From: Thermoplasmata archaeon
GTDB taxonomy: Archaea; Thermoplasmatota; Thermoplasmata; Lutacidiplasmatales; UBA184
Assembly: GCA_052326485.1 (NCBI GenBank)
Contig: JBKQMS010000019.1
Coordinates: forward strand, 34 to 64,033
Length of the DNA stretch: 64,000 nucleotides
Reading direction: 5' to 3'
Shown piece after piece: positions 20,053-50,849 of this stretch. The stretch's first letter is position 1. Every line of letters begins with the position of its first letter. A program made the position numbers and the translations under genes. The notes beneath the pieces are model-generated. The model was not told the origin of the DNA, made no database searches, and saw only the letters and a program-made list of their open reading frames with translations.

Positions 20053-21564
20053 TCAGCGGGAGGCCTTGGGTCGCTCGAGGGTGACGATCGACTCCCTCAG
20101 CTCGAAGCTCCGCCGCTGGCCGCTGCGCCGGCGCCGGGCGACCTCGACCGAGACGATCCGGAACCCCTCGTCCGCGCCGAGCCGGGCCAGGAGGAGGTCG
20201 CCCGGCACGTAGGCCCCTGCGAGGAGCGAGTCCCCTACCACCACGACGAACCGGCCTCCCGGCACGAGGGATCGGTAGACCCCGGCCAGCACGGGCTTGA
20301 GGTCGGCGAAGTACCGGTGGACGACCGCGTGCATGTCATCGCGGCGGTACGTCCTCTTGCGCGCAAGGTTCTCCCGGATCCGGGGCAGGATCTCGGTGAG
20401 CCAAGCGTCCGTGACCGCGCTCGTGTCGAGGTAGGGAGCGGCCTCCCGACGCGGGAGGTTGTCGCAGGCCACCTGGGCCCGTCGCAGGGCCACGAGGTCG
20501 CCGTACGAGTGAGCATAGCCGAGCCAGGCCAGGTCGACCTTGTAGTTCATCACGTAGTCCATGCCGTTCACGTACGGCGGGCTCGTGACGGCGAGTTCGA
20601 CTGAGCGAGAAGGCCAGCCTCCGGTGCGAGCGTCCCGAAGTGCGACCTCGGAGGCGGGACCCCAACGCGGGTGGTCCACGCCGAGGTCCCGAAGGTCGGC
20701 GGCCATCTCGTCGATTGCAGCACGGAATCGCTCGAACGGGGCCACCTCGTTTTCCACGGCGCGCTTCCCGTACCCGAGACACGGGGACCGGTGGAGGCGA
20801 CTCGAGGGGATCAGGATGCGGCCGAACGCGAGTCGGAGCGCGTCGTCGAGCGGATCCCCCTCCGGGGGCAACGCGTCGCGAAGGCGAGTGAGGTCCCGAA
20901 GCGCCTCCGGCGCGAACTGACGACGCGTTTCCCGAAGGAACGGGAGCGCTCCCGCGCTCCTCCGCTCGGCTCGTCTCAGGACCCGGTCGCCCCCTCGAAC
21001 GAGCGCGCGGGGGTCGGTCTCGAAGTTCGTCTTCACTCGGGCGGCGAGCACGGCCGGGGCGAGGAGCTCGGTACCGATGGCCCGGGCCCCGGACCGGCGC
21101 GCCTCCACGAGGGTCGTGCCGCTGCCGGCGAACGGGTCGAGCACGGTGGCCCCGCGGGGCAGCTCGGCGGCCTCCAGGACGCCGGCCACGAACTCCGCGG
21201 AGTACCCCTGGACGTACGGCCACCAGCGGTGGACGGGGAGAGCCTCGTTCGACCGGAACGTGATCGGCCCGGCGTACCGTCCGAGCGCCACCCCGTTCTC
21301 CTGTTCGAACCGTTCGACGAAGGCCGCCGGGTCGACGAAGTCGTCGCGTTCCGTGAGGCGCTCGAAGTCCCGGAGAACGAAGAGCCCCCGTCCCATTCGC
21401 AGGACGTCCCCCTGGCTTCGGAGCCGGTCGAGGACCTCGGCGACACGGTCCGGGCGGTCATCCAAACGTGTGGCGATCTGGCGGGCGGTGGCACCGATCG
21501 CTCCGGTCTCTCCGAGCACGTCGCGTACGGCCCCGATGAGGTCGCTCTCCTCCGGGGCCGGCAC
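20053..21564 (-). CDS. Site-specific amino-DNA methyltransferase (probably m4C) with N-terminal HTH-like extension
   Basis: VHRWWPYVQGYS, VLDPFAGSGTT (motif I) before VTSPPY (motif IV), L.PGG.FVVVVGDS; start approximate. Confidence 0.85.
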   Translation of the reverse strand: MPAPEESDLIGAVRDVLGETGAIGATARQIATRLDDRPDRVAEVLDRLRSQGDVLRMGRGLFVLRDFERLTERDDFVDPAAFVERFEQENGVALGRYAGPITFRSNEALPVHRWWPYVQGYSAEFVAGVLEAAELPRGATVLDPFAGSGTTLVEARRSGARAIGTELLAPAVLAARVKTNFETDPRALVRGGDRVLRRAERRSAGALPFLRETRRQFAPEALRDLTRLRDALPPEGDPLDDALRLAFGRILIPSSRLHRSPCLGYGKRAVENEVAPFERFRAAIDEMAADLRDLGVDHPRWGPASEVALRDARTGGWPSRSVELAVTSPPYVNGMDYVMNYKVDLAWLGYAHSYGDLVALRRAQVACDNLPRREAAPYLDTSAVTDAWLTEILPRIRENLARKRTYRRDDMHAVVHRYFADLKPVLAGVYRSLVPGGRFVVVVGDSLLAGAYVPGDLLLARLGADEGFRIVSVEVARRRRSGQRRSFELRESIVTLERPKASR

Positions 21565-21608
21565 GGGCTCGGGAGACCGTAGTAGGGTAATAACGGAACG
21601 ATGCGGGC

Positions 21609-22469
21609 TCAGGTGACCTTTGGCCGAGGGCGCCGACCCGCCGGCGGAATCCGCGTTGGGGACTCGAGCGCTTTCAGGACGTCGCGTCGACGTCGGCGCC
21701 GTTCCTCTCGAAGCGCGTCGGCCCACGCGGTCTTGCGGACCTCCTCGTCGAGCCCGACCAGGACCATGTCGAGGTCGTGGAGGTCGCCGAGGTCCTTCTG
21801 AAGTCGCACCAAGGAGCTCGAGAACCCCCGCTCGTGCCGGGGGTCGAGCGCGACAGCGAGGTCGGTGAACTGTCGGGCGCGGCGGATTCGGATCCGGAGT
21901 CGGTGAAGCCGCTCCATCGACGGACGGCGGAGGGCCTTGCGGTGCGCCCTCCTCAGGTTCTCGCTGGTACGGGCATGGGCGAGCGCAACGGCGTGGTGGG
22001 GGTCGCGGAAAGACCCGGAGCGGGGCAGGCTGCGCAGCCTCTCTCCGACATCGTCTAGCAGCCGCGCCTGCCGCTCCGAGCGCAGGAACGCCCGCAGGAG
22101 CTCGCGACCGGTGCGCGCGTCGTCCTGGACCCGGGTGCGGTACCGTTCGAGCCGCTCGAGGTCGCGGCGACCGGGACGCCTCCCGCCGAATCGCTGGAGG
22201 AGCGCGAGGGAGATGTCGCGGTCCCGGATGCGACCGACGAGGCGGGAGAGCCGCTTGATCCGGACGTCGAGCGGGTGGAGAAGGTCACGTTCCGCGCTCG
22301 GGAGCAGGGCTTCCCACAAAGCGAGCCCGGTCCGCAGACGTCGCATCTGCCGATGTAGGCGGTGAAGGCTCTCCGGGGAGGGGTGGGCCGAGGCGACCAC
22401 CTGGTCGACGGCCCGGGTCGCCTCTTCGAGGATTTCCCCGATCTCGCGAGCGACGCGTTCGGGTCGCAT
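21609..22469 (-). CDS. CHAD-domain polyphosphate-binding protein
   Basis: LHRLHRQMRRLR, GRIRDRD, LHRLRIRIRRAR, LQKDLGDLHDLD. Confidence 0.9.
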   Translation of the reverse strand: MRPERVAREIGEILEEATRAVDQVVASAHPSPESLHRLHRQMRRLRTGLALWEALLPSAERDLLHPLDVRIKRLSRLVGRIRDRDISLALLQRFGGRRPGRRDLERLERYRTRVQDDARTGRELLRAFLRSERQARLLDDVGERLRSLPRSGSFRDPHHAVALAHARTSENLRRAHRKALRRPSMERLHRLRIRIRRARQFTDLAVALDPRHERGFSSSLVRLQKDLGDLHDLDMVLVGLDEEVRKTAWADALREERRRRRRDVLKALESPTRIPPAGRRPRPKVT

Positions 22470-22611
22470 CGTGCGGCTCTCGCTACCCCGAAACATCGGA
22501 CCGTCTCCCTCGTGGGGCGAACCAGGACCCCCACGTAAACCATTCGGAGGGAACACTCCGTCCGCCGGACTTTACCCGAGTCCTATTAGCGACAAGGCGT
22601 TCTCGGGGGAC

Positions 22612-24171
22612 ATGCACCGTCCCCGCCTCGCGGACCTCGAGCGGGGCGAGCCGGCGAGCCGCGCCGTTTCCACGATCGGAGTGATGGACATCGGGTCGAA
22701 CACGGCCCGGTTCGTCGTGTTCGATACCTCCAGCGCCGGGACCGTCCGGGCGGTCTACCAGACCAAGGACGCGCCTCGCCTCGGGTCGGGGACAGGCCCG
22801 GACGGCAGCCTCTCTCCCGAGGCGATGATCCGGGGGGTCGCCACGGTCCGACGGTTCGCCCGCACCGTCCGCTCGCTCAAGGTGCCGAAGACCCTGGCGG
22901 TAGCGACCAGCGCCGTACGGGATGCACCGAACGGCCCGGAGTTCGTCCGGGACGTGTCGCGGGCGACCGGAGTGTCGCTAAGGACCATCTCGGGGACCGA
23001 GGAGGCTCGTTATGCCTACCTTGGGATCGCGAGCGCCTGGGAGCTCTCGAACGACCTCATCTGCGACCTGGGCGGCGGCTCGCTCCAGCTCGCCGACGTC
23101 CGGGACGGCTCGCTGCGCAACTCCGTCAGCCTGCCGCTCGGCGTCCTGCGGCTCTCGCAACGATTCTTCGACCATGACCCGCCCAAACGGCGAGAGCATG
23201 ACGCGCTGCGCGAGCACGTGCGGGGAACGCTCTCCTCGGTCCTCGAGGCGTTCGGTGGGGGACCGTACCGCCTCTTCGGCATCGGCGGCACCGTCCGTTC
23301 CCTCGCTCGCGCGTCGATCGAGTTCCGGGAGTACCCGGTCCGTCGGGTCCACGGCTATCTCCTCTACGAGAACGACATCGAGGCACTCGAGGAGCTCTTG
23401 GGCGAGATGCCCGCCGCCCGCCGTCGGGCGGTCACCGGTATCGGAGGGGACCGCGCGGACGTCGTCCTCGCGGGGATCATCGTCTTCTCCGAGCTCCTGC
23501 GGGCGGTGAAGGCCGAGCGGGTCGTCGTCTCGGGTACGGGGATCCGGGAGGGGATCGCCCTCGAGTCGATCGGAGCAAAGCTTCCCGCCCCGGCGGAGAC
23601 GCTAGCCGAGCGTTCGACGGCCGCCGCGGCGGAGTCGTTCGCCTTCGACCTCGAGCACGGACGGGAGGTCGCCGAGACCGCCAGCGCCCTCTTTCGGGTC
23701 CTGTCGGACCGGTTCGACGGGGGTCCGAGCGAGGCGCTCGTCCTTCGGGTCGCCGCGTGGATGCACGACGCGGGAGTCGCGGTCGACCTCTGGAACCACG
23801 CCCGCCACTCATCCTACCTGATCCAGAACTACCCAATCTGGGGGCTCGATCAGCGCGAGGTCCTCCTCGCCGGGATGGCCGCCTACCTGCACGAGGGGAA
23901 GAACGCGGTCCCCTCGGAATGGAAGAGGGGGTTCCTTCCAATCATCGGTCCGTCCGACCTGGAGAAGGCGGTCCGCCTCGGCGCGATCCTGGGCGTGGCG
24001 GAGCTGCTATCATCGGTCCGGCCGAAGTTCTCGCTCGTCGCGGACGGGAAAGCGCTCGGGGTGAGCTTTTCTTCTGCGCGGGATACGACCCTCTCCCCAC
24101 GCTGGGCAGAGAAGGTCCGAAAGGTGATGGAACGCGTCTTCGAGCTCGAGGTGCGCTATCGCGATGCCTGA
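22612..24171 (+). CDS. ppx: Exopolyphosphatase Ppx/GppA family with C-terminal HD domain
   Basis: DIGSNTAR, VATSAVRDAPN, DLGGGS, GIGGT, GIREG, AWMHDAG. Confidence 0.93.
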   Translation: MHRPRLADLERGEPASRAVSTIGVMDIGSNTARFVVFDTSSAGTVRAVYQTKDAPRLGSGTGPDGSLSPEAMIRGVATVRRFARTVRSLKVPKTLAVATSAVRDAPNGPEFVRDVSRATGVSLRTISGTEEARYAYLGIASAWELSNDLICDLGGGSLQLADVRDGSLRNSVSLPLGVLRLSQRFFDHDPPKRREHDALREHVRGTLSSVLEAFGGGPYRLFGIGGTVRSLARASIEFREYPVRRVHGYLLYENDIEALEELLGEMPAARRRAVTGIGGDRADVVLAGIIVFSELLRAVKAERVVVSGTGIREGIALESIGAKLPAPAETLAERSTAAAAESFAFDLEHGREVAETASALFRVLSDRFDGGPSEALVLRVAAWMHDAGVAVDLWNHARHSSYLIQNYPIWGLDQREVLLAGMAAYLHEGKNAVPSEWKRGFLPIIGPSDLEKAVRLGAILGVAELLSSVRPKFSLVADGKALGVSFSSARDTTLSPRWAEKVRKVMERVFELEVRYRDA

Positions 24172-26171: not shown

Positions 26172-27221
26172 CTATGGAGTTAGCGCCGGATATACGGTAC
26201 CGCGCCGTCCGGGAGTCCGTTCCTTGGCCCCGGCCCTCGGCACCCATCGGTCGAGCGTCACTTGGGCGACGTCCTGTGCATAGGCGACCGTGCGACCGAT
26301 CGACTCGAGGATCCGTGTGACGGCGGCCGCCGTCGCGGGGGGCATCGTGCCATCCCCCACGGCCGGGAGGAGTCGGTCGGAGAGGGCGCGGCCCGACGCC
26401 TGGAGCGCGTCCCCGAGGTCGAGGAGGTCGTTGGCGACGGAGCCCTCCGTGGCACCCAGGACCCCTTCGAGGTGGTCCATCGCCTGCCGGTGGAACTGCC
26501 GCAGCGAGGTCGCGGGGCCGGTCCCGTTCGGGAGGTCCACGAGACGTCGACCGACCTCGCCGAGAACGACCGCGTGATCGGCGATCCGTTCGAGGCTTCG
26601 AGCGGTCGTCCATAGACCGAGCCACTCGGCCCCGCGGTCGGCCGCCCCCAACTGGATCGCGGCGACGCGCTCGACGTACCAGGCATCCCGGTCGATCTCG
26701 TCGTCGCGGTGCTCCCAGTACCCATCATCGAGGAACGGAAGGTGAGACCAGCTCTCGACCGCTTCGCGGTGGAACTCGACCACGAGCCGACCCATCCGAG
26801 CGATCCGCTGGTCGAGAGGGATCTGGCTCTCGAACGCGAGGTCGCGCAGGTGAAGGACCCCGGCCTCGTCCGAAATGATCTCGGGCTGGCGGGTCCGTCG
26901 GCAGAACGTAAGGACGACCTCGCGGGTGTCCGGTCGGATGTTCGGGCGTTCGCGGACGACGAACTCGCGGGCTCCGGCAAGGTACGCACCCAAGAGACGG
27001 CGGAACAGATGCTCGGAAGGTTCTCCACGGCCGACATCGATCGTCGCGCCTTCGAACGCTTCGAAGGCAGGCGGCGCTTCGTTCCGCAAGACGCGGGCGA
27101 CACGGAGAGGAGAGGTCGGGTGGGCTAGTTCCTCCTTTGGAGGAGAGGACGGTCTTTCTCGGGAACCGGAGGTCCCTCCGGACGCTCCCGCACCGCCCCC
27201 AACGGGGTTCTTGGTCTTCAT
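26172..27221 (-). CDS. PhoU-like phosphate uptake regulator (archaeal long form)
   Basis: FRRLLGAYLAGA, DDEIDR, ARSLERIADHA, LESIGR..AYAQDVA, i.e. two PhoU repeats. Confidence 0.8.
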   Translation of the reverse strand: MKTKNPVGGGAGASGGTSGSRERPSSPPKEELAHPTSPLRVARVLRNEAPPAFEAFEGATIDVGRGEPSEHLFRRLLGAYLAGAREFVVRERPNIRPDTREVVLTFCRRTRQPEIISDEAGVLHLRDLAFESQIPLDQRIARMGRLVVEFHREAVESWSHLPFLDDGYWEHRDDEIDRDAWYVERVAAIQLGAADRGAEWLGLWTTARSLERIADHAVVLGEVGRRLVDLPNGTGPATSLRQFHRQAMDHLEGVLGATEGSVANDLLDLGDALQASGRALSDRLLPAVGDGTMPPATAAAVTRILESIGRTVAYAQDVAQVTLDRWVPRAGAKERTPGRRGTVYPALTP

Positions 27222-27244
27222 CGAGCCGGACAAGCAGCCTATCC

Positions 27245-27295
27245 CATATATAGAGTTCCAATTTAGACTATAGTTAATGCTATAGCTATGGTATT
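27245..27295. promoter_or_regulatory. AT-rich promoter/operator region upstream of the phoU-like gene
   Basis: TATAG at 27249 and palindromic CTATAG at 27268 and 27280 in a strongly AT-rich patch. Confidence 0.55.
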
Positions 27296-27432
27296 TCGCG
27301 TACACCGGCCCATCCTCGGAGTTTCGGGGCCTGCCGGCCCGTCTCTGGCAGACGCTCCGGTCGGTGAGGTTCGGCTCGGCAGGTCCGTGCCGGCACGATA
27401 CTCCATAAGAGAGGGGAGCATTCCCCCGTCGC

Positions 27433-29201: not shown

Positions 29202-29342
29202 CGTCGACGGAGGCCCCCCCTCGGTCCGTTGGAACGACGAAGAAGAGCGGCTCACGGGCTTCGCAGGCGGGGGCGCGTCTAAAGCCCTTCTCGCCCCCGA
29301 TGGCTCTTGAGCCAGGCGCAGGACGGACGTCGGCGGACCCGA

Positions 29343-29365
29343 TGGGCCGGGACGGATTCGAACCG
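29343..29365 (-). repeat. att-like direct repeat: exact 23-bp copy of the tRNA-Val 3' end
   Basis: TGGGCCGGGACGGATTCGAACCG is identical to 37125-37147; the flanking bases differ. Confidence 0.9.
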
Positions 29366-29408
29366 CCCGGCGTTTCGAGTATCGTGGAAAGTGCTCCCGA
29401 CGAGATGA

Positions 29409-29762
29409 CTCCCCCGATTCGGCGGCTACTCGCGGACGCGGTTCGAGTCGCGCGTCCCGTTCGGTGACCAGGACGAGGACGCGGGCGAGGAGCCCGTCAC
29501 GCACCGGTTCAGTCTCCTGGAGATTACGAGCGGGCTCCTCGACGACTCGCGGGAGGCGGACGAGCGGGTCGCGGAGCGGAGCCTTCGCGACATGCGGTGG
29601 CGCTTGAAGGCGGCCCGCGAGGCGATTTCGGCCACGCCCGATGCCGAGGACGCCCTCCGGCAGGGAGTGGCCACCCTCTCCAACGAGGAGGTGGACCGTA
29701 TCGTGAAGGGCCGGGACACTCGCTCAGGCAGGTCGGCCGAGGCGCACGAGCGGGACGTCTAA
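29409..29762 (+). pseudogene. Probable 5'-truncated gene remnant just inside the att repeat
   Basis: 118-codon stop-free frame (…RFGGYSRTRFESRVPFGDQDED…LRDMRWRLKAAREAIS…HERDV*) with G/C-ending codons and no start near its 5' end. Confidence 0.45.
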
Positions 29763-29978
29763 GCGTTACAGTCATAGCATAACGCGGTTCAGGACTCTGG
29801 TCATTCGACATCATCCCACCGAACCGCACGGTGACGCACACCGAGAGTCTTATTGACATGGAGTCGTTGAAGCCGCTGATGGTTCCTCGGGGGCTGCCGT
29901 TGAGGCCGGTCCTTCTGAGAACTGTCGTGAGACGGCTCGGGTCCGGGTCTCGGGCACGTCTCGGGGAGAACGAATCCC

Positions 29979-32900
29979 ATGGTGGCAAACGAAGACCCGG
30001 GAATAGGCGATAGCCGAAACAGCGAGCGAGGTGCGTCCGCTTCGGGCCACCGACTCCGTGGAGGCCCAAGCGTCTTGCGACGCGGATCGAGGTACCGAAA
30101 GCCCCTCACCGTCTCCGTCGCCATCGGCTGCTGCCTCCTCATGCTTCTGACCTCGGTCCCGTCGGCCGCGGCATCATCTTCTGGGAATCCCCCACCACCG
30201 CCTGCTGGCGTTACCCCGAGCATCCTCGACTACGTTTACAACGTCGATCCATCGCTCTTCCCGCTTCCGTCCAACTTGCTGTCTTCGACGACCACGTCCC
30301 TCGTGAAGCTGATCTCCCTTCCCTCCGGAGCAAACTCGTTTGGGATGCTCAACGCGTCTCTCAGCAGTGGCGGAGCCGGCGGAGTATGGTTCGAATCGGG
30401 GGGTTATAGCCCGTCCATCGCGGCGGCCCTTGTGAAGCCGGGTTGCTCTAGCAGTTCGTGCCCGCCGAGCGTCCCGATTCAGTGGAACCCCGCCCTCAGG
30501 GTCGCCTCCTTTTCCCATGCCGTGACCGCCGACGCCCTGACGGTGTCGGGCACCATGGTGATCGCGGCCGCATCCAGCGCGGGAACGACCCAGCTTTGGA
30601 ACTCAAGCACGTCAGGTTCGACATGGAACCCTTTCGGTGTCCCGATTACGGGAACGGTGGTTTCCCTCGGCGCGAATGCTACGAATTCGGTCGTCGTGAC
30701 GGTCGCCGCGTCCGGCTGGGCGGCGACGGCCTTCGGCCTCGGCGGTGTAGAGATTGGCCAGGCCGATCTCGCCCCCAGAGGGTCCGGAGCGACAGGGATT
30801 CTGTCGGCGGCCGCGACCTTTGTGGCCAGCGGATTGGGTTCCCTCGTTGCAATCGCGTTCTCCGTTGGTGGATCCAATCAGGTCCAGATGGTCACCTCGA
30901 CCAACGGAGGCGTGTCCTACAGCTCCCCTCTGACCGTGGGACTGTCCAGTTCCACGCAACCGAACCCTGCACTCTCCTCGCTCGGTGACAGCCAGCTTGC
31001 CTCTCCCGGGTGGATCGCGGGACAGCTCGGGTTGGTTTCCTTCGGGTCCGGGCTCTTCCTGGCGTATCCCTCGCTGACTGCGGGTCAGCTCGACCTTCTC
31101 ACCGAGAGCTCGGGGAACGGGGGGCAAACATGGCAGGGTCCATTCGAATCCGGCCCGGTTTCCGGAGGCATTCACAATCTCAGCGTCACAGCCTCAGTTG
31201 CGGGTCTCGCATACGCTACTTGGGCGAATCCGGGTTGGGGAACGGGTGGTGTGGAGGAAGCGATATTCTTCGCCGACGGGTCCCCGTTGCTGTCCCCAAG
31301 CCCAATCCCAGGAGCCGGAGGAGCAGGCCCGGGACTTACGGGGGCCCCATCCCTCGCCATCGACTCGTTCCAACGACCGTTGATCGCGTGGCCTGTTTCC
31401 AACGGGATGGCACGGGGGATCGCGTTCACGGGCGACTTCCTCACCGCCAATCAATCCCTGGCGCAGGTCGATCAGATGGTTAACGACCCCTTGGTAGGGG
31501 GCGACTTCCCTTCAGGGGGCGGGTCTTCGCAACAGGCGGCGTTCAACGCGAGCGTCGCGAACGCTGTGTCCCTGGTCTCCGCCGGTCTTTCCACCAACAA
31601 ACTCTGCAACGCGCAGAACGCGACCGCCCTGTCACTCTACCAGAACGTGACCCATCTCCCTCTATCCATCCTTCCCGGGTCGGGGACCGTTTGCTCCTCG
31701 AAGCTGACACCTAACAACCTCACGTCGCCCATCGCCAACACGGTGGGCGTCAACGCGCCGAACACCTACCTCGCCGTGTACTCCGATTGGTTGCTGGAGT
31801 CGCTCGGCGTTCCCCTCGGCGTTTCGCCGCTATTGAACGCAACCAATCCGTGGGGTCCTTCGGCTACGCCTGCGCCTACGCCTTTGCCTCTGTCAAAGAT
31901 CACCAATTTCACGGGTAACCCGGGTTGTCTCCCAGGATTGGGAGGATGGTCCCAGTGTGGTACCCAGGAGAACGTGGCAGTCCTACCGTTTGTCTATAGC
32001 CCGACCGCTTTCAACCTTGCCGTGACCGCTGGGTTTCCTTCATCCAGTTACTCGACGCAATGGAAGACCTGCGGAAAGGTCAGTCCCCCGATAAACGGCG
32101 GTGAATTCACCTATACGGCCAACTATGCAGTCGTCAAGACCTGGACCAACGTTTCGATCAACAATGGGACCGTCCATTCGTTCACCGGGACGGGGTTCTA
32201 TCCCTCTCCCTACGTCTCCAATCTCACGCCGAGCAGCTCGTTCTACTGGAGCGTCACCCTCTCTCCGCTCTATCAGCTCCAAATTAGCGGGACTTGGTGC
32301 GGGGCCGGCTCGCAGCCTTCGGCCCCCTTCACCGTGTCCAAAACGACCTTTTCTGGGGTGGTCAAGACCACTCTCGCATTCGGCTTTACTTCTTACTCGT
32401 GGCACACGACGTATACAACGAAGTCGAACAGCGCTCCGGTTTCTTTGTCCTTCGCCTCGGGTGCGAACATGGGTGTGGTCGGCAATGTAACGATCACCGA
32501 CAACTCGAACGGCGGCGTGACCGTCGCCAGGTGGACGAGCTGGCCTCCCGGGTGGTATCTGCCTGCAACCCAGGGAGGCGTGGGCTTCACGGGTGTCGTT
32601 GGACATACCTACCAGGCCACCGTTTGGTCGACCAGTCGCCCTGGAGGCTGGACCTCGGCTCAGGTTCCCTCGTTCTCGTATTCACCTCCAGTCAAAGCCC
32701 CCGCTCAGACGGTCTCATGGTCCTTCTCGTTCACGCTAACGCGTCCATCCATCACGGTCTGGGGTTGGCAGGTGAGCAACATAACCGCCACGACCGCCCA
32801 GCTGACATGGCTTGCCAACTTCAAGGCGGCCGGATTTGTGACGTATTCCACGGAAGGAGGCGGAAGCAACCTCACAATCTCGGGAATGTCAGGAACCGTA

Positions 32901-35900
32901 CTCTCCAATGGGACCGCATGGAGGTTCACGGTAGAGTTGCACGGGCTCGAGCCGTGGGCGTTCTACCAGGGCACCTACGGAGTCGTCGCCTCCACAAAGA
33001 CGTACACCTATTCCGTAAGCCAAGCCTTCAGTCCGTTCCAGACGGCGGCCGCGCTGGTCCTCTGGGAGTCCGACAACCTCTACGATTCCATAACCAACAC
33101 CGGGGGAGGGGCGGAGTTCCACTGGAGCCTGCCGCCTGCCGTGGCCGAATCGAATCCCGCGGCGAAAGTGTCGGGCGGGACTCTGACGATCTGGAATGCC
33201 ACTCAGACGCTAGTGATCCCGGTTTCCCCGTCCGAAATCAACACGAATCCCACTAGCGCGTGGTTCAACACGCTGAATGTTTCCCTGGCAGCTTTGAACA
33301 ACACGTACGGCGCTGCTCTCCAGCTGAACTACACCGGTTCTCCTGCATTCTCCGCCTACAGCCAGAACTACGCCTTCACCTATCAGAAGGATTCGAGCGG
33401 GGACGGTCTTACGGATCTCGAGAAAGAGAACGGATGGGAGATCACCTCCACGGGTACCTGGGGGACCGTGAGCTACCCCGTGTACGCCTCTCCATCCCTA
33501 TACTCCACGAACGGGCTGGTCAGCGACTACTACGAAAAGGCCTACGGTCTCAATCCGCTGGTCGTCGACACTGCTGGCAGCCACATGCTCGACATGTGGA
33601 ATTTGACGTTTGACTTGGGCAGTTCATCAGCCCCTGTGTCGATTCCCGACTCCAGTGCTTTCCACCTCTGGTGGGAGAACAACACCACCTTCTATCCATT
33701 CAATTTCGCGCCATACCCCAACGACCCGAGCTGGGGCGGAAAGGCGTTGGCCAAGGACATCAGCAACATCTCATGCACGGCCACAAACTGCCCCGGAAAC
33801 TCACCCTACTCTTCCGAGGTTCTCTGGTCCAGCCAGGCTCTGACCACTTTTCTCAACATGCCGGGGGTCATCAACTCGGTGACCGGAAGTTGGCTCCGGG
33901 GTGTGATTTCTACCGCCGGCACGAATCGCACACTGACACTCTGGGGGAAGCTTTCCTGGGGGGCAAACCCGCTCGTGAATGCCGCTCTTGGCAATGGGGT
34001 TCCAGACGGGGCCCGAGTGAACCCGCTCCTCGCGCAGGACTTGGAGATCAGTTTCGGCGAGGGGGGGGCAGAGCTGAGTTCGGGCAGCTGCAGCGGGGTG
34101 CCTTCGGGCTCTGCCTACGCACTCAGGATGTGGGTAAACGGATCCGCGGCGAGTCCCGTGACCGAGTTGGCCGGTGCTTACTCGCAGGAGGTGGGCGTCA
34201 GCGGGGGATCCTGCGGCGCCATCTATAGCGGGAACCCAGTCGTCTGGACATTCCCTGTTGACAACCAGGTGCAGTTCCAGAGGGTCACCATCCAGATTGT
34301 GCTCAACACATCGACCCCCGGGTTGGTGCCGGTCAACGGCTCGTCCACGTCAGTCGTTATCCCGATAGACATGCTCAACCCGCCTCCTCTGACGGCCTGC
34401 ACGCGTGCCGGTTGCAGTCCTTGGTTCGAATACTTCGGGTCGAGCTCGACCTACGGGACGTACTCCGACCTCGAGTTCGGCATCACCGCCGTTCCGGCTG
34501 GCGCGAAGACCCCTACTTATCTCTGGCTTCCACCGGGAAACGCGACGGTCAGTTCCCTCCCTGCGGGCCTTCAACGATACACCGGGGCACAGAACTTTGC
34601 GTTGTTGCTAGTCAATGCGTCTGCAACTCAACAGGTGTACAACATTCCGACCCCCTGGGGTAGCACTTACTCGGTCACGCTTTCATCCGGACTGAACAAC
34701 ATCCTGATCCCGATGGTTGCCCTCAGCAACTCCCCCCTGGGCGACGCTCTGTTTCTGAACAAGGTGGCCGCGGACTCGAGCCAAGCCGTGCCTCCGATGT
34801 TGCAAACGGCACAAGCCGGGGGCCTGATCGACGGTTCCGGCACTGCTTCCCTCTCCGACCTCGCGTGCTACTGGCAGAATCGGGCGGTGAGCTCGAGCTC
34901 GTCGGTTACTCCCCTGTGTTCCGCTCATCATTCGGCGGACAAGGGTTCGTCGGTCGGGTCGGGGCTACGTATGATGCTGCTCAACGCCACGCCGAGCAGT
35001 TGCATCATCAATTGCGGAACGGTGCCCAACAATCCATCGGTCGAGAGCGGGGCCAACGCCCTCCCCGCGCTCGGAGTGTTGGTCGCCTTGAACGTCACCA
35101 ACACGTCGATGGTCTACGCCCTCCTCGCGGGAATCCTCGACAACTCTTCGGGAGGAGTCAATGGAACCTTCGAGGCCCTCCAGCCGTACCAGATCGCCAC
35201 TCTCGGCCTTCCCTCCGTTGTTCTCGACGCCATGGCCAACGTTTCCGCCCAGAACACACCAATCTTCGGACCGCCCAAGGCGAATCTTGGCGCCCAGCAC
35301 CAAGACTCCTGTTCTGGCTGGTTGGGCTGCGCGGCTCAGACTTGGAACTCGCTGGCTGGAGACGTCGTTTCTGGATTCGCTGTTGTCGCAGCGTTCTTGT
35401 GGAGTGCGACGATCGTCTCTGTTGTCTTCTGGGCGAACTTGGTCGTCGCGGCCGCGAGCCTCTATTACGAGTACGTCATTCAGCCCACAATCAGCACCAT
35501 AGAGAGAGTTGGGAGCGTGATCGTGGGCGCCCTGAACGCGCTCCTCAACTACATCATCTCGCTCGTGAAGGCGGCGCTGGCGGCGGTTATCAATCCCATC
35601 GTGAATGCTGCAGAAAGCTTCGATAGCGCGCTGGGCGCGGCAACTAATGCTAGCGTCGCGGATGTGGCTGGAGGTGGGAGCGTCACGATTGCTCATGCGA
35701 TGGCATGGGCACACTCTTTCGATGAGATAGCTCTCATAGGAAGCGTCCTCGGCTCAGTCATCGCAATTGTGATCACTCTCACCGCTCCGTTCGAGCTGGG
35801 TGCCAATTTCCTGTTGGGATTGATTGTCGGCTTGCTTCCGACCGTCGCGAGTCAGCTGATTTCCGGCTTCCCTTTTGGCATGGCCACTCTCACTCAGTCA

Positions 35901-36305
35901 GCGGTAACCGCGCTCGAGAGTTCGCTCGGGACCCCGCTCAGTGCCACCGCTTGGACTGCAGTGGCCGAATTGGTCGGGATTGCGGCTCCGAGCGGAGATT
36001 TTCTATTCTCGTTGATCAAGGCCTCTGAGAACAATTTCCCTGAGGCGGTCGCCCTATCGTTCTTTACAACTACAATCGTGGATGTGATTGTCGTCCTGTT
36101 CAATGTCGCCACTTGGTTCATCCACGTCTCCGCGATGGTCATCACCGCACTCATTCTCGCTGGATTCGCGGGCGGTCTTGCCGCTGTTGAGTACCCTAAG
36201 TACAGTGCGTTCCCGGAATTGGCAACCTTCGCAAGTCTCTCACGAATTCTAGGTATCGTTGGGTTTGGTGCTGCTTGCGCAGATTTTGTGTTGGCCGGTG
36301 GGTGA
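29979..36305 (+). CDS. Giant (2108 aa) exported multidomain protein with hydrophobic multi-helix C-terminus
   Basis: Signal-like segment (RYRK-PLTVSVAIGCCLLMLLTSVPSAAA), three Asp-box-like motifs, FN3-like module, DSSGDGLTDLE Ca-binding-like motif, many N-x-S/T sequons, ~330-aa hydrophobic tail. Confidence 0.85.
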   Translation: MVANEDPGIGDSRNSERGASASGHRLRGGPSVLRRGSRYRKPLTVSVAIGCCLLMLLTSVPSAAASSSGNPPPPPAGVTPSILDYVYNVDPSLFPLPSNLLSSTTTSLVKLISLPSGANSFGMLNASLSSGGAGGVWFESGGYSPSIAAALVKPGCSSSSCPPSVPIQWNPALRVASFSHAVTADALTVSGTMVIAAASSAGTTQLWNSSTSGSTWNPFGVPITGTVVSLGANATNSVVVTVAASGWAATAFGLGGVEIGQADLAPRGSGATGILSAAATFVASGLGSLVAIAFSVGGSNQVQMVTSTNGGVSYSSPLTVGLSSSTQPNPALSSLGDSQLASPGWIAGQLGLVSFGSGLFLAYPSLTAGQLDLLTESSGNGGQTWQGPFESGPVSGGIHNLSVTASVAGLAYATWANPGWGTGGVEEAIFFADGSPLLSPSPIPGAGGAGPGLTGAPSLAIDSFQRPLIAWPVSNGMARGIAFTGDFLTANQSLAQVDQMVNDPLVGGDFPSGGGSSQQAAFNASVANAVSLVSAGLSTNKLCNAQNATALSLYQNVTHLPLSILPGSGTVCSSKLTPNNLTSPIANTVGVNAPNTYLAVYSDWLLESLGVPLGVSPLLNATNPWGPSATPAPTPLPLSKITNFTGNPGCLPGLGGWSQCGTQENVAVLPFVYSPTAFNLAVTAGFPSSSYSTQWKTCGKVSPPINGGEFTYTANYAVVKTWTNVSINNGTVHSFTGTGFYPSPYVSNLTPSSSFYWSVTLSPLYQLQISGTWCGAGSQPSAPFTVSKTTFSGVVKTTLAFGFTSYSWHTTYTTKSNSAPVSLSFASGANMGVVGNVTITDNSNGGVTVARWTSWPPGWYLPATQGGVGFTGVVGHTYQATVWSTSRPGGWTSAQVPSFSYSPPVKAPAQTVSWSFSFTLTRPSITVWGWQVSNITATTAQLTWLANFKAAGFVTYSTEGGGSNLTISGMSGTVLSNGTAWRFTVELHGLEPWAFYQGTYGVVASTKTYTYSVSQAFSPFQTAAALVLWESDNLYDSITNTGGGAEFHWSLPPAVAESNPAAKVSGGTLTIWNATQTLVIPVSPSEINTNPTSAWFNTLNVSLAALNNTYGAALQLNYTGSPAFSAYSQNYAFTYQKDSSGDGLTDLEKENGWEITSTGTWGTVSYPVYASPSLYSTNGLVSDYYEKAYGLNPLVVDTAGSHMLDMWNLTFDLGSSSAPVSIPDSSAFHLWWENNTTFYPFNFAPYPNDPSWGGKALAKDISNISCTATNCPGNSPYSSEVLWSSQALTTFLNMPGVINSVTGSWLRGVISTAGTNRTLTLWGKLSWGANPLVNAALGNGVPDGARVNPLLAQDLEISFGEGGAELSSGSCSGVPSGSAYALRMWVNGSAASPVTELAGAYSQEVGVSGGSCGAIYSGNPVVWTFPVDNQVQFQRVTIQIVLNTSTPGLVPVNGSSTSVVIPIDMLNPPPLTACTRAGCSPWFEYFGSSSTYGTYSDLEFGITAVPAGAKTPTYLWLPPGNATVSSLPAGLQRYTGAQNFALLLVNASATQQVYNIPTPWGSTYSVTLSSGLNNILIPMVALSNSPLGDALFLNKVAADSSQAVPPMLQTAQAGGLIDGSGTASLSDLACYWQNRAVSSSSSVTPLCSAHHSADKGSSVGSGLRMMLLNATPSSCIINCGTVPNNPSVESGANALPALGVLVALNVTNTSMVYALLAGILDNSSGGVNGTFEALQPYQIATLGLPSVVLDAMANVSAQNTPIFGPPKANLGAQHQDSCSGWLGCAAQTWNSLAGDVVSGFAVVAAFLWSATIVSVVFWANLVVAAASLYYEYVIQPTISTIERVGSVIVGALNALLNYIISLVKAALAAVINPIVNAAESFDSALGAATNASVADVAGGGSVTIAHAMAWAHSFDEIALIGSVLGSVIAIVITLTAPFELGANFLLGLIVGLLPTVASQLISGFPFGMATLTQSAVTALESSLGTPLSATAWTAVAELVGIAAPSGDFLFSLIKASENNFPEAVALSFFTTTIVDVIVVLFNVATWFIHVSAMVITALILAGFAGGLAAVEYPKYSAFPELATFASLSRILGIVGFGAACADFVLAGG

Positions 36306-36312
36306 GTCGGGG

Positions 36313-36915
36313 ATGGAGCCCGGGCACGTAGCGACAGTTTACGACGTACGAGAGCTGAGTGACAAGCTGGCGAATCTTGGGCGGGTCGGTCGAATTTCGT
36401 CATGGGTTGGGTTCGGCATAGGCGCTATCGCTCTTGCAGTCGGTGCCCTGGAGCTGACTCGATTCTTGCGCATGGGGACCGTCGCTGTATCAGTGACAGG
36501 AACCGGATTCGGTCTCTTTGTGCTTGGAATTTCCTGGTGGTCATTTCGGAGGGGAAGAGTCGGCGCCGTGTTGGTGGAGGTTGATGATGAGGGCGTCAAG
36601 CTTCATTACAGAAGGCGACGGGTGAAGCATCTTCGCTGGGCCGACCCGCATTTGTCGTTCATCTTGGAGGACGGCAGCGTTCTCCCCGCTGAGGTAACTA
36701 AGGGCGGGTTGCTCTTTCGTCTAAATGTAGGAAGTGGTGACACCCCTCTAACGAGAGCTGCCTTCTTCGACATCCTTTCCCGAGCCCGACAACACGGCTT
36801 GGTAGCGCGAAGCGGCCGGGACCGCGTACTGCTAATGCCACCCAGCATGTGGCTGATGGATTACCACATTCGCGGCTCGACTCATCGGCCGCGACATCGA
36901 GACGAGTCCGCTTGA
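36313..36915 (+). CDS. Small membrane protein: two TM helices plus a basic cytoplasmic PH-like domain
   Basis: WVGFGIGAIALAVGAL and VTGTGFGLFVLGISWW helices, then VEVDDEGVKLHY…HLRW; starts 7 nt after the giant ORF. Confidence 0.75.
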   Translation: MEPGHVATVYDVRELSDKLANLGRVGRISSWVGFGIGAIALAVGALELTRFLRMGTVAVSVTGTGFGLFVLGISWWSFRRGRVGAVLVEVDDEGVKLHYRRRRVKHLRWADPHLSFILEDGSVLPAEVTKGGLLFRLNVGSGDTPLTRAAFFDILSRARQHGLVARSGRDRVLLMPPSMWLMDYHIRGSTHRPRHRDESA

Positions 36916-37102
36916 AGGCGGCGGAAGCGGTGGTCGCAACCCCCCCGGGTCCGGCCGAGACGCTCGCGCGCGATCCTCAAATTGGTTGTTCTGAACCGAA
37001 GGGCGACGCGAGGCTGATCCGTAGGTAACTCCCGCGTTCTGCGCGGTTTCTTCCCTCTGGTGTCTCAGCCGATAAGGTAGGGGAGATGTCGGGAGTTGAA
37101 TG

Positions 37103-37124
37103 TGGGCGTCTGGGATTCGAACCG
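37103..37124 (-). repeat. Degenerate tRNA-3'-end-like copy abutting tRNA-Val
   Basis: TGGGC-GTCTG-GGATTCGAACCG versus att TGGGC-CGGGAC-GGATTCGAACCG. Confidence 0.6.
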
Positions 37125-37197
37125 TGGGCCGGGACGGATTCGAACCGTCGATCTCCGCGTTGTAAGCGCGACGTCATCACCGCTAGACTACCGGCCC
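37125..37197 (-). tRNA. tRNA-Val (anticodon TAC), intronless, CCA not encoded
   Basis: GGGCCGG acceptor stem, TCGCG-CTTACAA-CGCGG anticodon arm, GACGG-TTCGAAT-CCGTC T arm. Confidence 0.95.
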
Positions 37198-39051
37198 CGC
37201 ATCCGGAGGAGACCGTTCCTCGGTCATGGGGCTGTCGGTCGGAGCGTGTTCACGGTGGCGAACACGGACCGCCAGACCTCGGGCGAGTTCGGTCATCAGC
37301 CGACCGGGGAGGGACGCTTCGCCCACCGCGGCTAGCTGACCGTCCCGTACGAGGATCACGGCATCGCCGGTTCGGATGCGTTCGTCCGCGTGACGGACCC
37401 CCGGGACGAACAGATCCCCTTCGAGAGGGACGCCCGGGTCTACCTCGACGGCGAGCGGAGGGTTGGGCCAAAGTCGTCGCGCGCCGGCTACGGTGAGGTG
37501 GAACAATCCGCGTTCCTCCCGCCAGGTGGCGAGGTCCGCGCGCCCGTCGGTCACGCGCTGGAACCACGGCCGACCGCTGAGTCGCACCGGGGGAACGAAC
37601 AGCCGACGCGCGGCCTCGGGCCCGAATTGAACGCCCGCGAGCGCCTCGAGTTCCTCACGCACGACCGATAGGGGACCTCCCGGCACCGTGCTCTCGCCCG
37701 CGAGCGCATGCCCGACCGCGGACCGCAGCGCGGCGACCGCCTCGTTCGTGGTGGTCCGATCGTCGGCGAGGGTCCATCGAACGGTGTCGGACGGCGGGAG
37801 GTCCGAGGAGAGGAACGAGTACTCCTGAGGGTCGAGGTGCACGACCACCGACCGATACTTTCCGCTCGTGCGCAGATGGGCGAGCGCGGCCCGGACGAAC
37901 TCTCGCTCGCTCTCCTCCCAGTCCCCGGTGACCGGTATGTCATAGTGACGAGCAGGAGGGAGGTCCTCGAGCTCGCGCGGAACGAGACCGATCGGCGAGC
38001 TGACGGAGACGATGTGGACCCGTTCGAGCGGGGAAAGTCCTTCGAGGGCCCCCCAGAAGCGACGGTGGCTCCGGGAGCGACGGTACGGCTTCGTCTTCGA
38101 GCACGGGACCAAGAGGAGGACCGTCTTCGACGGCGGCGGACGGTACCGCTCCAGCAGTCGAGTGCGGAACCGCACCATTTCGGGCCGTCGGTGGGATTCG
38201 AGGAGGACGTAGTCACGAGACCCGGAGAACGCGACCGGTGTCCGTTCGTCGAGAAGTCCCCCGAGCTCCCGGTCGGCGTACCGGAGCATCTCGGCGAGCG
38301 CCGGCTCGGCCACGAGCCGGGACTCGACCAGCTCTCGGAGGCGCCCTCCCCGGGCGGCCGCGACGGTCTCGGCCATCGCCCGACGGCAGGCGAAGACGGC
38401 ATGTGCCGAAAGGGGACCCGCTGGGTCCGACGAGCAGGCCGTGCAATCACACGCCCGCTCGAAGGGAGGGGGAGCCGGCACGCGAGGGCCGAGCCCAGGG
38501 TCGAGGAACACGCCCTCTGCGGCCACGAGGTGGGCTTCGGTGGTGTCGACGAGGTCGATTCCGAGGTAGGCTAGGAGAGGGATCCGGTGCGGGAGTGCGA
38601 GCCGCGGGGTCCAGATCAGTGGAGACGCCCCGAATCGGGACCGAATGTCTCGAATCGCTCGCACGAACGGCAAGCCCTCGGCCCAGAGGGCCCGGGCGTT
38701 GCCGAGGACGATCAGCTCCGGCCGCTCCGAGCGCGCGGGGGCCACGGCAGCGTCCGGTGCGAGAGGCGGGTGGACCAGGAACGCCCCGGGTGCGATCGGG
38801 TAGACGCCCGGTCCCTCGCCGCTGACCTCCGGCGCGGGGATAGGGGTCTCGAGGGCGTACCGCGCGACCGAGTCAGAGAGCTCGAAACCGCGCTTTCCGG
38901 CCGGTGCCGGCACGGTGCGGAGCGAGAGACCAGGACCCCCCTCCCCATCGACCCTGCTCTCGAGGAGGGCCGGGGTCACGACCGAGAGGGGACCTAGAGT
39001 CGCCCCTCCGATCAGGGAGAGCCCCTCGAGACGTTCCACCGTTCGGGGCAT
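37183..39051 (-). CDS. arcS: Archaeosine synthase (ArcS/TgtA2 family)
   Basis: LAYLGIDLVD, CDCTAC, GRLRELVE, LLVPCSKTKPYRRSRSH, SPIGLVPRELE, YDIPVTGDW, C-terminal PUA domain. Confidence 0.9.
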   Translation of the reverse strand: MPRTVERLEGLSLIGGATLGPLSVVTPALLESRVDGEGGPGLSLRTVPAPAGKRGFELSDSVARYALETPIPAPEVSGEGPGVYPIAPGAFLVHPPLAPDAAVAPARSERPELIVLGNARALWAEGLPFVRAIRDIRSRFGASPLIWTPRLALPHRIPLLAYLGIDLVDTTEAHLVAAEGVFLDPGLGPRVPAPPPFERACDCTACSSDPAGPLSAHAVFACRRAMAETVAAARGGRLRELVESRLVAEPALAEMLRYADRELGGLLDERTPVAFSGSRDYVLLESHRRPEMVRFRTRLLERYRPPPSKTVLLLVPCSKTKPYRRSRSHRRFWGALEGLSPLERVHIVSVSSPIGLVPRELEDLPPARHYDIPVTGDWEESEREFVRAALAHLRTSGKYRSVVVHLDPQEYSFLSSDLPPSDTVRWTLADDRTTTNEAVAALRSAVGHALAGESTVPGGPLSVVREELEALAGVQFGPEAARRLFVPPVRLSGRPWFQRVTDGRADLATWREERGLFHLTVAGARRLWPNPPLAVEVDPGVPLEGDLFVPGVRHADERIRTGDAVILVRDGQLAAVGEASLPGRLMTELARGLAVRVRHREHAPTDSPMTEERSPPDAGPVV

Positions 39052-48548: not shown

Positions 48549-48603
48549 GGACCGACCAGCGAAGCGTCAAATACCGCGCCCCCGCTTTCTCGGACCCCTC
48601 ACC

Positions 48604-48915
48604 ATGTTCTGCCCTTCCTGCAAGCGACTCATGCGCCCCGACCGCGCCGCGGGGGTCTGGAACTGCTCGGCGTGCGGGAAGAAGGTCCCGCTCGGCCGCG
48701 GGGTCGAGGTCCGGCAGACCGATGCGAGCGGGCGGGGCAAGGTCGCGGTCGTCGAGACGAAGCACGTTACCCTGCCGAAGACCGAGGAGACCTGCCCGAA
48801 GTGTTCGAACGGCGAGGCGTACTGGGTGCTGCGGCAGACGCGCGGGTCTGACGAGCCCGAGACGCGGATCTTCGAATGCACGAAGTGCGGCCACAAGTGG
48901 CGGGAGTACTCGTGA
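48604..48915 (+). CDS. tfs: Transcription elongation factor S (TFS/RpoM)
   Basis: MFCPSC…CPKC…QTRGSDEPET…C..CGHKWREY. Confidence 0.95.
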   Translation: MFCPSCKRLMRPDRAAGVWNCSACGKKVPLGRGVEVRQTDASGRGKVAVVETKHVTLPKTEETCPKCSNGEAYWVLRQTRGSDEPETRIFECTKCGHKWREYS

Positions 48916-50216: not shown

Positions 50217-50315
50217 CCGGACGCTCGTCGCGAGCGTTTCCAGGCGAGGGCGTGGGCAACGTTCAAGAGCGGTCGCGCGCTTACGGAAGTACACTCCCCC
50301 GACGGAGAACCTAGA

Positions 50316-50849
50316 GTGGCACCAGAGCAGGAAGCGGTCCGGGGAGGCGAGCGCTCGGGACCCCCGACCGAGAAACCGTCGGGCGCCGTCGTAGTCGAAC
50401 GGATCACCCACCAGGACGTCCCGGCGATCTGCGGCCTCTATCGTAAGGTCTGGGACCCGGCCCCCTCCGGCGTGCCCCCCGAACTCGTGAAGGCGTGGCA
50501 GCCAACCCCGCTCGAGTTCACGAGCTGGATGGGGGGTGTCACGTACTTCGCGGCCCGGAAGGACGGCCGCTTGGTGGGCGTGGTCGGTTGCGAGCTCCGC
50601 CACGGGAGCTGTCGGATGGTGCACCTCGTGGTCGACCCGGAGTTCCGGCGCCAGGGCGTGGCGACCGCGCTCGTCGGGGTCGCGGTCGAATGGACGAAGA
50701 AGGGGAACGTCGCATCGATCTGGGTCGATTCGCTCCACGGCCTCGAGTCGGCGACGGGGCTCTTCCGACGCCTCGGCTTCACCCTCGTGGGCGTGCTCCA
50801 CCAGCACGAGTGGGGCGAAGACGTCAACTTCTGGGAACGGCTCGTTTAG
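50316..50849 (+). CDS. GNAT-family N-acetyltransferase
   Basis: LVVDPEFRRQGVATAL, FRRLGF. Confidence 0.88.
   Translation: MAPEQEAVRGGERSGPPTEKPSGAVVVERITHQDVPAICGLYRKVWDPAPSGVPPELVKAWQPTPLEFTSWMGGVTYFAARKDGRLVGVVGCELRHGSCRMVHLVVDPEFRRQGVATALVGVAVEWTKKGNVASIWVDSLHGLESATGLFRRLGFTLVGVLHQHEWGEDVNFWERLV

Follow-up and report, generated by a model that had tools for sequence, protein, structure and literature searches.

Polymorphic toxin systems such as CdiA-CT/CdiI, Rhs and MafB combine a conserved body with a swapping C-terminus, a cognate downstream gene, orphan cassettes and solitary immunity arrays, and typically employ many unrelated toxin folds. Here, we describe a locus of comparable organization in a 64,000-nt stretch (referred to as the window) of contig JBKQMS010000019.1 from a Thermoplasmata archaeon, in which the gene of a giant, probably exported protein ending in a hydrophobic C-terminal domain (CT) is followed by a small gene for a protein with two transmembrane (TM) segments, the partner. 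The locus is similar to CdiA-CT/CdiI, Rhs and MafB in having a large exported protein, a swapping C-terminus, a tightly linked downstream gene, 5′-truncated orphans with homology arms and solitary arrays of the partner. Unlike these systems, it is archaeal, its C-termini form one homologous hydrophobic family and the CT resembles a polytopic anchor. Unlike in contact-dependent inhibition (CDI) and Rhs loci, no known delivery system and no VENN or PxxxxDPxGL demarcation motif was seen.

Pore-forming colicins and CdiA-CT(EC93) possess homologous membrane-active C-terminal domains, are matched by small polytopic immunity proteins and often reside on small mobile replicons. In contrast to these, no significant fold or sequence match was obtained for the present CT, which is much more hydrophobic and is seemingly located in the membrane of its producer. 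In the TraG/Eex and TraG/TraS entry exclusion of conjugative elements and in the IdsD/IdsE identity pair of Proteus, matching alleles of a large and a small membrane protein decide the interaction between cells. The likeness to these pairs is functional only (specificity in or near membrane or cytoplasmic segments), and neither conjugation nor type VI secretion system genes were found among the open reading frames (ORFs) scanned in the islands that carry the locus.

VARTIG of Thermococcales, as described in the available part of Makarova et al. 2021 (PMC8416519), consists of a large secreted protein, whose hypervariable C-terminal part recombines, and of variable downstream genes, and was likened to polymorphic toxin systems. 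That part of the paper leaves the function open, proposing conflict or self/non-self hypotheses, and reports no close counterpart outside Thermococcales. According to the same text, the variable part of VARTIG is an Ig domain and the downstream genes are varied and partly Ig-containing, whereas here a membrane domain is accompanied by a single two-TM partner family in Thermoplasmata. The fusogen Fsx1 has, in the available portion of PMC9259645, an ectodomain of ~55 kDa with class II fusogen fold and a patchy distribution in integrated mobile elements. The giant protein shares with Fsx1, as far as described there, a signal peptide, a glycoprotein-type ectodomain, several C-terminal TM segments, the location in integrated elements and the patchy spread; its ectodomain of ~1,700 aa and its other motifs differ, the two being compared by sequence features and not by fold. 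No published description of the giant protein or of the CT family was found in the literature, supplementary tables (e.g., those of PMC8416519) being outside the search, and the family appears to be undescribed. The novelty lies in a polymorphic-cassette-type system whose giant protein and CT match no known family model and whose partner matches weakly.

The explanation that we prefer, tentatively and with a little less than an even chance of being right, is that the pair constitutes a mobile-element-borne module of allele-specific discrimination, in which the partner would protect in the manner of an immunity or entry-exclusion protein. The anatomy, the mosaic relatives, the co-variation, the orphan cassettes, the partner arrays and the setting on a mobile element were observed; CT–partner binding, protection and any toxic or excluding outcome are what we infer.

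The C-terminal cassette

The sequence-only reading of the window had proposed a 2108-aa ORF with a two-TM protein starting 7 nt after its stop, and both the ORF coordinates (Table 1) and the hydrophobic helices agree with this. A homolog search provided 21 proteins of 1361–2546 aa without functional name, the named ones being hypothetical. Comparison of identities region by region revealed that the relatives are mosaics. P0004 and P0005 are 54–68% identical to the window protein up to residue 1840 and only 11–36% identical over 1841–2108, while P0008 is 34–48% identical up to residue 1790, 14% over 1791–1840 and 68–72% over 1841–2108. For P0006, the identity is 73–75% up to residue 1150, 35–43% up to 1790 and 9–37% beyond; for P0011, it is 27–37% up to 1150, 48–72% over 1151–1840 and then 15–28%. 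The CT is therefore swapped independently of the rest of the giant protein, and the ectodomain is mosaic as well.

No loci were obtained with a single CT sequence against genome contigs; the family alignment used with core patterns gave 44 loci. It was found that 36 of the 43 complete CT-bearing ORFs are accompanied by a two-TM ORF whose start is located −123 to +28 nt relative to their stop. When the partner was used in jackhmmer against all ORFs of the loci, 41 hits were obtained; 24 of the 36 partners are members of this jackhmmer family and the other 12, too divergent for it, were accepted on two hydrophobic segments alone. The window pair is one of the 36 and was counted from the upstream open frame, its ATG lying 8 nt past the last base of the stop. 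At least two of the seven CT-bearing ORFs without a partner are situated at a contig edge (L007 and L039). In L021, L025 and L056, no CT was detected, yet hydrophobic helices are present at the end of the protein.

Pairwise similarity among the CTs is correlated with that among the partners (Spearman 0.63, Mantel 0/2000, partial r 0.72), although this co-variation can be explained by simple linkage of two adjacent and co-inherited genes and is no proof of binding. The similarity to the 300 residues upstream of the CT gave lower Spearman values, 0.34 for the CT and 0.23 for the partner. As far as sequence comparison goes, these results show the CT and the partner to be the unit of exchange. The expectation of the sequence-only reading, namely that C-termini and downstream genes of homologs vary together, was thus borne out. 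Neither a conserved C-terminus nor the absence of a consistent partner was encountered; what was found were swaps, co-variation, orphans and arrays (see below).

Orphan ORFs of 230–941 aa, which consist of part of the core and a CT, are located downstream of full-length genes in L018, L019, L029, L040 and L047. The next gene is a partner of the jackhmmer family in L018, L019 and L047 and a divergent two-TM ORF after the first orphan of L040; no partner was found after the orphan of L029. The 5′ arms of the orphans in L047, L019 and L029 extend over 500–1600 nt and are 75–84% identical, at the nucleotide level, to the core of the full-length gene. The pieces shared by the L040 orphan are short (44–117 nt), and the sole match in L018 is a 112-nt overlap of the compared ranges. 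Beyond range overlaps (L040, L018), nothing detectable is common to the CT and partner of the orphan and those of the full gene. No orphan cassette was observed within the window.

The CT profile was also compared with 1.84 billion representative proteins (50% identity clustering), giving 684 matches at E ≤ 1e-3 and 437 at ≤ 1e-10, and in all 684 the CT is positioned at the very C-terminus. Among the best 150 matches, 84 have fewer than 900 aa and 54 have 1800 aa or more; 51 of the 84 short ones begin with M, and the rest may be clipped by contig ends.

The giant protein and the partner protein

The N-terminus of the giant protein has a basic stretch followed by a hydrophobic segment and SAAA/SS, from which we infer a cleavable Sec signal peptide; upon its cleavage, the CT would be the only anchor left. 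The protein has 39 NxS/T sequons, 38 of them before residue 1760, K+R is low throughout and a Pro-rich linker precedes the CT. The three Asp-box-like motifs are where they had been noticed before, and S307, S378, G382 and W385 of this region are invariant in the 19-member alignment, in line with conserved S, G and W. Pfam BNR_2 matched one of the 19 family members (E 0.0089). For the FN3-like module suggested near ~32780, the conserved W, L and Y speak in its favor and the profile support is weak (Table 1); a TIG match in one of the 19 members, scanned one by one with Pfam, is likewise a weak hint. The DxxGDGLxDxE and NP..DT motifs, assigned to ~33390–34030 in the sequence-only reading, fall in the block with the highest conservation in the family. 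The motifs of this core are DSSGDGLTDxEKxxGW, NGLVSDxxEK...DTWNLTF and TVWGKLSWGANP...DG, and in the window, the DSSGDGLTDLEKENGW motif of this block is found at nt ~33390, with the NP..DG motifs extending to ~34030.

The whole giant protein has no Pfam and no NCBIfam match, and a search of the ESM Atlas with the ectodomain and with the CT provided no usable match (best score 0.80). The sole match of the whole-family sequence profile in PDB was the tape-measure protein of phage 80alpha (E 2.6e-4, profile positions 1729–1840). It was absent with the CT-only profile and was taken as compositional.

These features of the giant protein would also be expected if the element encoded a structural adhesin, fusogen or spike for attachment or fusion in cell-to-cell or vesicle-borne spread. 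In that case, the CT would be a polytopic anchor, the partner an internal adaptor or matrix protein, and the orphans and extra partners would be by-products of recombination. We regard this as the main rival of the discrimination module, though on the unlikely side. The signal peptide, the 38 ectodomain sequons and the linker support it, as do the modules of adhesion type, namely Asp-box, FN3 and, in some members, TIG. It has a precedent in Fsx1, which the available part of PMC9259645 describes as a protein of integrated mobile elements whose ectodomain is combined with a signal peptide and three TM segments at the C-terminus.

The Gly/Ala-rich, hydrophobic helical C-terminus of ~330 aa seen previously is confirmed. 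From residue ~1781 on, the CT has six to eight hydrophobic helices between 1792 and 2108 with Kyte–Doolittle hydropathy (KD) up to 2.44. The AlphaFold2 (AF2) model of the last 340 residues (42-row alignment; pLDDT 69, pTM 0.45) is all-helical, with two very long helices first and shorter ones thereafter. No column is invariant among 42 CTs and K+R amounts to only 2.5% (D+E 6.7%); an enzyme signature is thus missing, which counts in favor of the discrimination module. A Pfam scan of the 42 sequences gave nothing consistent. The sequons of the CTs are clustered in two loops, 1879–1908 (41) and 1979–1998 (41), which account for 82 of ~103 in total, and K/R is concentrated in 1819–1868, 2009–2028 and 2069–2088, i.e., in loops alternating with the sequon loops. 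This alternation points to a polytopic domain that is stably inserted in the membrane of the producer itself, for which such a pattern is expected, and it is typical of the anchor that an adhesin or fusogen would possess.

The sequence-only reading had favored a membrane-inserting effector with its immunity protein. The locus organization upholds the pairing. A delivered pore-former does not fare as well, given a single CT family, no colicin-like fold and the sequon/basic alternation. In its classical form, this explanation would have a colicin- or Bcl-2-like CT leave the producer, insert in the target membrane and depolarize it, with the partner as membrane immunity protein, which we consider improbable. 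In its favor are the organization as in CDI and Rhs loci, a membrane protein as immunity candidate, and a strongly hydrophobic hairpin (1913–1960) with a near-invariant turn at Gly1941 and amphipathic helices on both sides. Two Bcl-2 leads were obtained below threshold: Bcl-w with the CT profile (E 0.03, profile positions 80–133) and Bak chain 9clb_B in the wide structure comparison (Z 9.0, rmsd 4.1 over 109 residues, rank 11). Both are nevertheless within noise, as generic helical bundles reach Z 10.5 and the threshold for helical models is near Z 13. Foldseek of the CT model against PDB gave no match at E ≤ 0.001, the wide structure comparison brought up only generic helical bundles, and a colicin-like fold was recovered by neither. 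In addition, Sec export would presumably insert six to eight helices of this hydrophobicity into the membrane of the producer itself, the sequons are distributed as expected for a fixed topology, and neither a release or cleavage site nor a delivery system was seen.

The partner has hydrophobic helices at ~28–48 and ~55–75, which are followed by a very basic domain. Its AF2 model (36 rows) is confident (pLDDT 88, pTM 0.78); in it, a short strand at the N-terminus precedes the TM hairpin, and a beta-rich domain containing one helix comes last. The architecture of the bacterial pleckstrin homology (PH) domain membrane proteins (bPH), with a PH-like fold after a TM hairpin, is visible in this model. 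Support for the PH-like fold is weak, as bPH_6 matched two of 36 members with a best E of 0.01. The Foldseek rows of the partner with PH-like folds had probability ≤ 0.23, and no match at E ≤ 0.001 was found with Foldseek against PDB. In the wide structure comparison, the list was filled by matches to the helical hairpin and not to the beta domain. The well-folded basic cytoplasmic domain predicted by the model would also suit the adaptor of an adhesin or fusogen. Prediction of the CT–partner complex gave scores of 0.00, 0.37 and 0.00 against a mark of 0.32, which is evidence neither way. The CT co-varies with the beta domain of the partner at rho 0.46–0.48 and with the TM hairpin at 0.16–0.24, TM scoring being composition-driven.

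A two-TM ORF similar to the partner (29484–30056) was also observed on contig C17 of the window's genome (26135–30056, L060), directly after an ORF of 1066 aa that lacks TM segments and is unlike the giant family. The partner family may pair with other large proteins as well.

The tRNA-integrated island and its surroundings

The pair is carried by an island of ~7.8 kb with a GC content of 0.609 against 0.690 and 0.693 in the flanks, and the values are lowest in the CT (0.568) and the partner (0.580), in accord with the earlier remark that the C-terminal region and the next gene are the most A/T-rich. The island contains a truncated 117-codon frame (Q117), the giant gene and the partner, and nothing else. 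A tRNA island had been suggested. In fact, a single tRNA, tRNA-Val, adjoins the pair, the other tRNA of the window being 21 kb off; the 3′ end of tRNA-Val does take part, as one copy of the 23-nt repeat. The repeat is exact, and none of 100 shuffles gave two matches. Inside the island, the 3′ end of tRNA-Val is abutted by 23 nt that look like the 3′ end of another tRNA. This fragment has no second copy in the assembled genome (86.7% complete) and may be the relic att site of an earlier element integration.

No integrase or replication genes were found between 29366 and 37124, and the window copy is therefore a remnant; an integrase homolog is present elsewhere in the window's genome, at the end of contig C1. 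Besides the window, a tRNA gene (Pro, Gly, Thr, Leu, Val or Arg) is located within ~500 nt of the module in nine distinct loci. Repeats of tRNA ends flank the module also in L026, where the tRNA is again tRNA-Val, and at other tRNAs in L017, L036, L045, L051 and L055. In the larger islands (17–22 kb; L036 and L045), a 466–471-aa protein abuts the tRNA and matches the phrog_1 integrase (E 2.8e-8 and 2.1e-6), and Prim-Pol or PriCT primases are encoded as well. Judged by these sequence features, the window island is best described as one of a family of small elements that integrate at tRNA genes, now in a decayed state. The module being the main cargo of such elements with integrase and primase is also consistent with the adhesin or fusogen. 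On the other hand, scanning IMG/VR viral contigs with the family alignment revealed no relative, and no ATPase or capsid gene was found among 30 island ORFs scanned, both of which speak against that rival.

The 430–470-aa proteins similar to phrog_1 always abut or overlap a tRNA gene; they have no Pfam match and the phrog_1 match is weak. They are probably archaeal integrases of a divergent family, with several different tRNAs as targets.

The Q117 frame has homologs in L015, L045, L053, L042 and L030 (E 2e-24 to 1e-7) and eight copies in the window's own genome. An assignment of 29409–29762 as an SSV-type split integrase fragment was ruled out, as the frame belongs to a non-integrase element gene family. 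This family has no Pfam or PHROG match and is recognized by a conserved N-terminal part, RTYEVRDVLRGxGLRWD, and a central LPDDSREADER...RVKAAR. It accompanies islands and partner-only arrays, for example at L015 4814–5719, L045 7833–8642 and L042 11544–12305 and on contigs C36, C44, C20 and C25 of the window's genome (G000).

Eleven DNA sequencing runs from four soil or peat studies contain part or all of the island, only DNA runs having been listed. One contig of 7901 nt from a peat run covers 29939–37839 with 277 differences. Contigs of three runs diverge exactly at 37124/37125, the edge of the island, and contigs of two runs match rightward from 34760 only, a break within the core that agrees with an independently varying C-terminus. 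In several contigs, 36973 is joined to 29431 with 25–28 other letters in between, which means that related copies have the left end after the right end. In two soil or peat runs, the depth was 112–214 over 29211–29884 and mostly 13–20 over the giant gene, with a few bins up to 30.

The host genome is a 1.66-Mb metagenome-assembled genome (MAG) of a Lutacidiplasmatales-like archaeon from soil. Ordinary archaeal genes surround the island: an amidohydrolase on the left, ArcS (DUF5591+PUA) and UbiD on the right. About 8 kb to the left, a 557-aa ORF with N6_N4_Mtase and UPF0020 domains was noted (20053–21726, − strand), with a Ppx/GppA gene (22471–24171) and a PhoU-domain gene (26172–27305) between it and the island. 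Two more very long ORFs, both on the − strand, are present in the window at 13248–16607 (1119 aa) and 48567–52802 (1411 aa). The records of the relatives are labeled Thermoplasmata archaeon, including UBA184, UBA61 and one Lutacidiplasmatales. L045, which has a full giant gene, partner, integrase and primase, comes from a MAG titled 'bacterium isolate clean3188', the other 43 loci being Thermoplasmata or Lutacidiplasmatales; its label is probably a matter of binning or labeling.

Table 1. Positions of the features of the locus; coordinates refer to the window unless another locus or contig is named.
Feature	Position	Strand	Remarks
Giant surface glycoprotein gene	29979..36305	+	2108 aa; TGA stop at 36303-36305
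Hydrophobic core of predicted signal peptide	30099..30176	+	Residues 41-66, then SAAA/SS; cleavage presumed
Region with three Asp-box-like motifs, possible BNR-type propeller	30276..31418	+	Residues 209-216, 307-314, 378-385; degenerate motifs starting at nt ~30603, ~30897, ~31110
FN3-like module	32751..33008	+	Weak: Pur_ac_phosph_N in 3/19 members, fn3 in 1/19; W944, L990, Y996 conserved
Most conserved family core	33381..34028	+	Near-invariant columns 1133-1344 (19-member alignment)
CT, helical hydrophobic domain	35319..36302	+	Residues ~1781-2108; swappable part from near residue 1841
Partner gene	36313..36915	+	200 aa, from ATG 36313; predicted N-terminal strand, TM hairpin, basic beta-rich cytoplasmic domain
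Left copy of 23-nt direct repeat (attL-like)	29343..29365	.	Identical to tRNA-Val 3′ end
Q117, 117-codon open frame	29409..29762	+	Truncated remnant of element gene family of 200-300 aa; N-terminal domain missing
tRNA 3′-end-like fragment	37102..37124	-	T-arm and acceptor of a different tRNA; abuts tRNA-Val 3′ end
tRNA-Val(TAC)	37124..37197	-	3′ end (37125-37147) is the right repeat copy (attR-like)
430-470-aa family, members in other loci	L045 2390-3802; L036 22438-23835; L030 20861-22168; L049 21066-22382; L051 13874-14974; L056 14481-15899		
430-470-aa family, member in window's genome	G000 C1 2-1393		

Partner arrays and the function of the pair

Among the genomes of the genus (121, including the unpublished G019 and G118), the partner profile matched in 97, at up to 15 places each and mostly without internal stops, against 29 for the CT profile; as the partner profile also catches at least one subfamily that is more conserved, 97 overstates the number of genomes with orphan cognate partners. 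This subfamily is represented by the copy on contig C16 of the window's genome, which has 35–80% identity to matches in 17 of 60 genomes. The copy on C25 has no close ortholog: its matches, found in 14 of 60 genomes, do not exceed 36% identity, and the best of them are CT-linked partners. The window's genome has one giant gene and five further solid partner-like ORFs on other contigs, none of them beside a CT. Partner-only arrays comprise seven partner ORFs in 12 kb in G007 and four in 6.6 kb in G010, without a CT or core match and interleaved with the Q117-type island family. In G106, three partner ORFs are found together with CT and core remnants, and CT remnants followed by intact partner ORFs were also observed in relatives.

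The intact partner-only arrays and the excess of genomes with a partner over those with a CT are left unexplained by the adhesin or fusogen, which explains the topology well. It is equally silent on why the swapped cassette is a membrane domain plus its partner and not the exposed tip.

The giant protein itself was detected in six of 36 genomes of the genus by a single-protein search, and some MAGs have several copies. This distribution bears on a further explanation, in which the giant protein would be a surface protein of benefit to the host or akin to housekeeping ones, such as part of the envelope, a glycan binder or a receptor for viruses that is under diversifying selection, and would happen to lie in a variable region, with the partner as a generic membrane protein of a large family. 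The large size of the partner family, the fairly conserved state of some of its subfamilies and the mosaic ectodomain would suit such a protein. Nevertheless, the patchy occurrence of the giant protein and of the CT, the multiple copies per genome, the low-GC island with att repeats and the tight coupling with a co-varying partner render it quite improbable.

Taken together, the grammar of the locus seems to match that of polymorphic toxin/immunity systems, with its swapping C-terminus, co-varying downstream gene, orphans with homology arms, partner arrays outnumbering the CT and location on small mobile elements. In the discrimination module that we prefer, the pair would be an allele-specific matched pair, carried as cargo of a decayed mobile element integrated at tRNA-Val. 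The giant protein would be exported, its signal peptide probably cleaved, and heavily N-glycosylated, so that a large adhesion-type ectodomain would be on display, held in the membrane by the CT of about eight helices. The partner, presumably translationally coupled, would consist of a TM hairpin and a basic PH-like cytoplasmic domain and would bind CTs of the type to which it belongs. Recombination inside the conserved core would exchange the CT and its partner together, as a single cassette, and 5′-truncated orphan cassettes occur alongside. Cultured Thermoplasmatales lack a cell wall, and we presume that the organisms considered here may lack it too. When the membranes of neighboring cells touch or merge, the partner would neutralize a membrane-active CT whose allele it matches. 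Cells that carry the same allele would thereby be told from others via antagonism, exclusion or recognition, and which of the three applies is not readable from sequence.

Several observations weigh against this explanation. All CTs belong to one homologous helical family, and diverse unrelated toxin domains were not found among them. The alternation of sequons and K/R places the CT seemingly as a resident domain of the producer's membrane. Foldseek, structure comparison and profile search revealed no significant match of fold or sequence between the CT and a pore-former, and no cleavage or release motif and no delivery apparatus was seen. To these are to be added the linkage of CT and partner and the overstated partner count, both mentioned above. 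Because of the misfits to the classical toxin picture, the broader statement of a protective pair is preferred to a toxin proper. A more specific version, namely a new archaeal kin-discrimination or contact-dependent antagonism system on small tRNA-integrating elements, in which the CT (possibly Bcl-2- or colicin-like) kills or excludes, upon contact or fusion of the membranes, a neighbor without the matching PH-like partner and the partner arrays represent acquired immunity, is conceivable and rather doubtful.

Archaeal conflict and self/non-self systems are barely known, and VARTIG, in the available part of PMC8416519, is the one comparable hypervariable module found in print. The present family is large (684 CT representatives) and occurs in Thermoplasmata that are abundant in acid soil and peat. 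With ~530 aa in total, the CT and partner cassette is a compact pair that can be tested directly. If allele-specific protection is true, it would represent a new membrane-level mechanism of toxin/immunity or exclusion in archaea and would account for the partner arrays found in the majority of the genomes of the genus; if the giant protein is instead a fusogen or spike, the finding would bear on the spread of small integrative elements from one archaeal cell to another.

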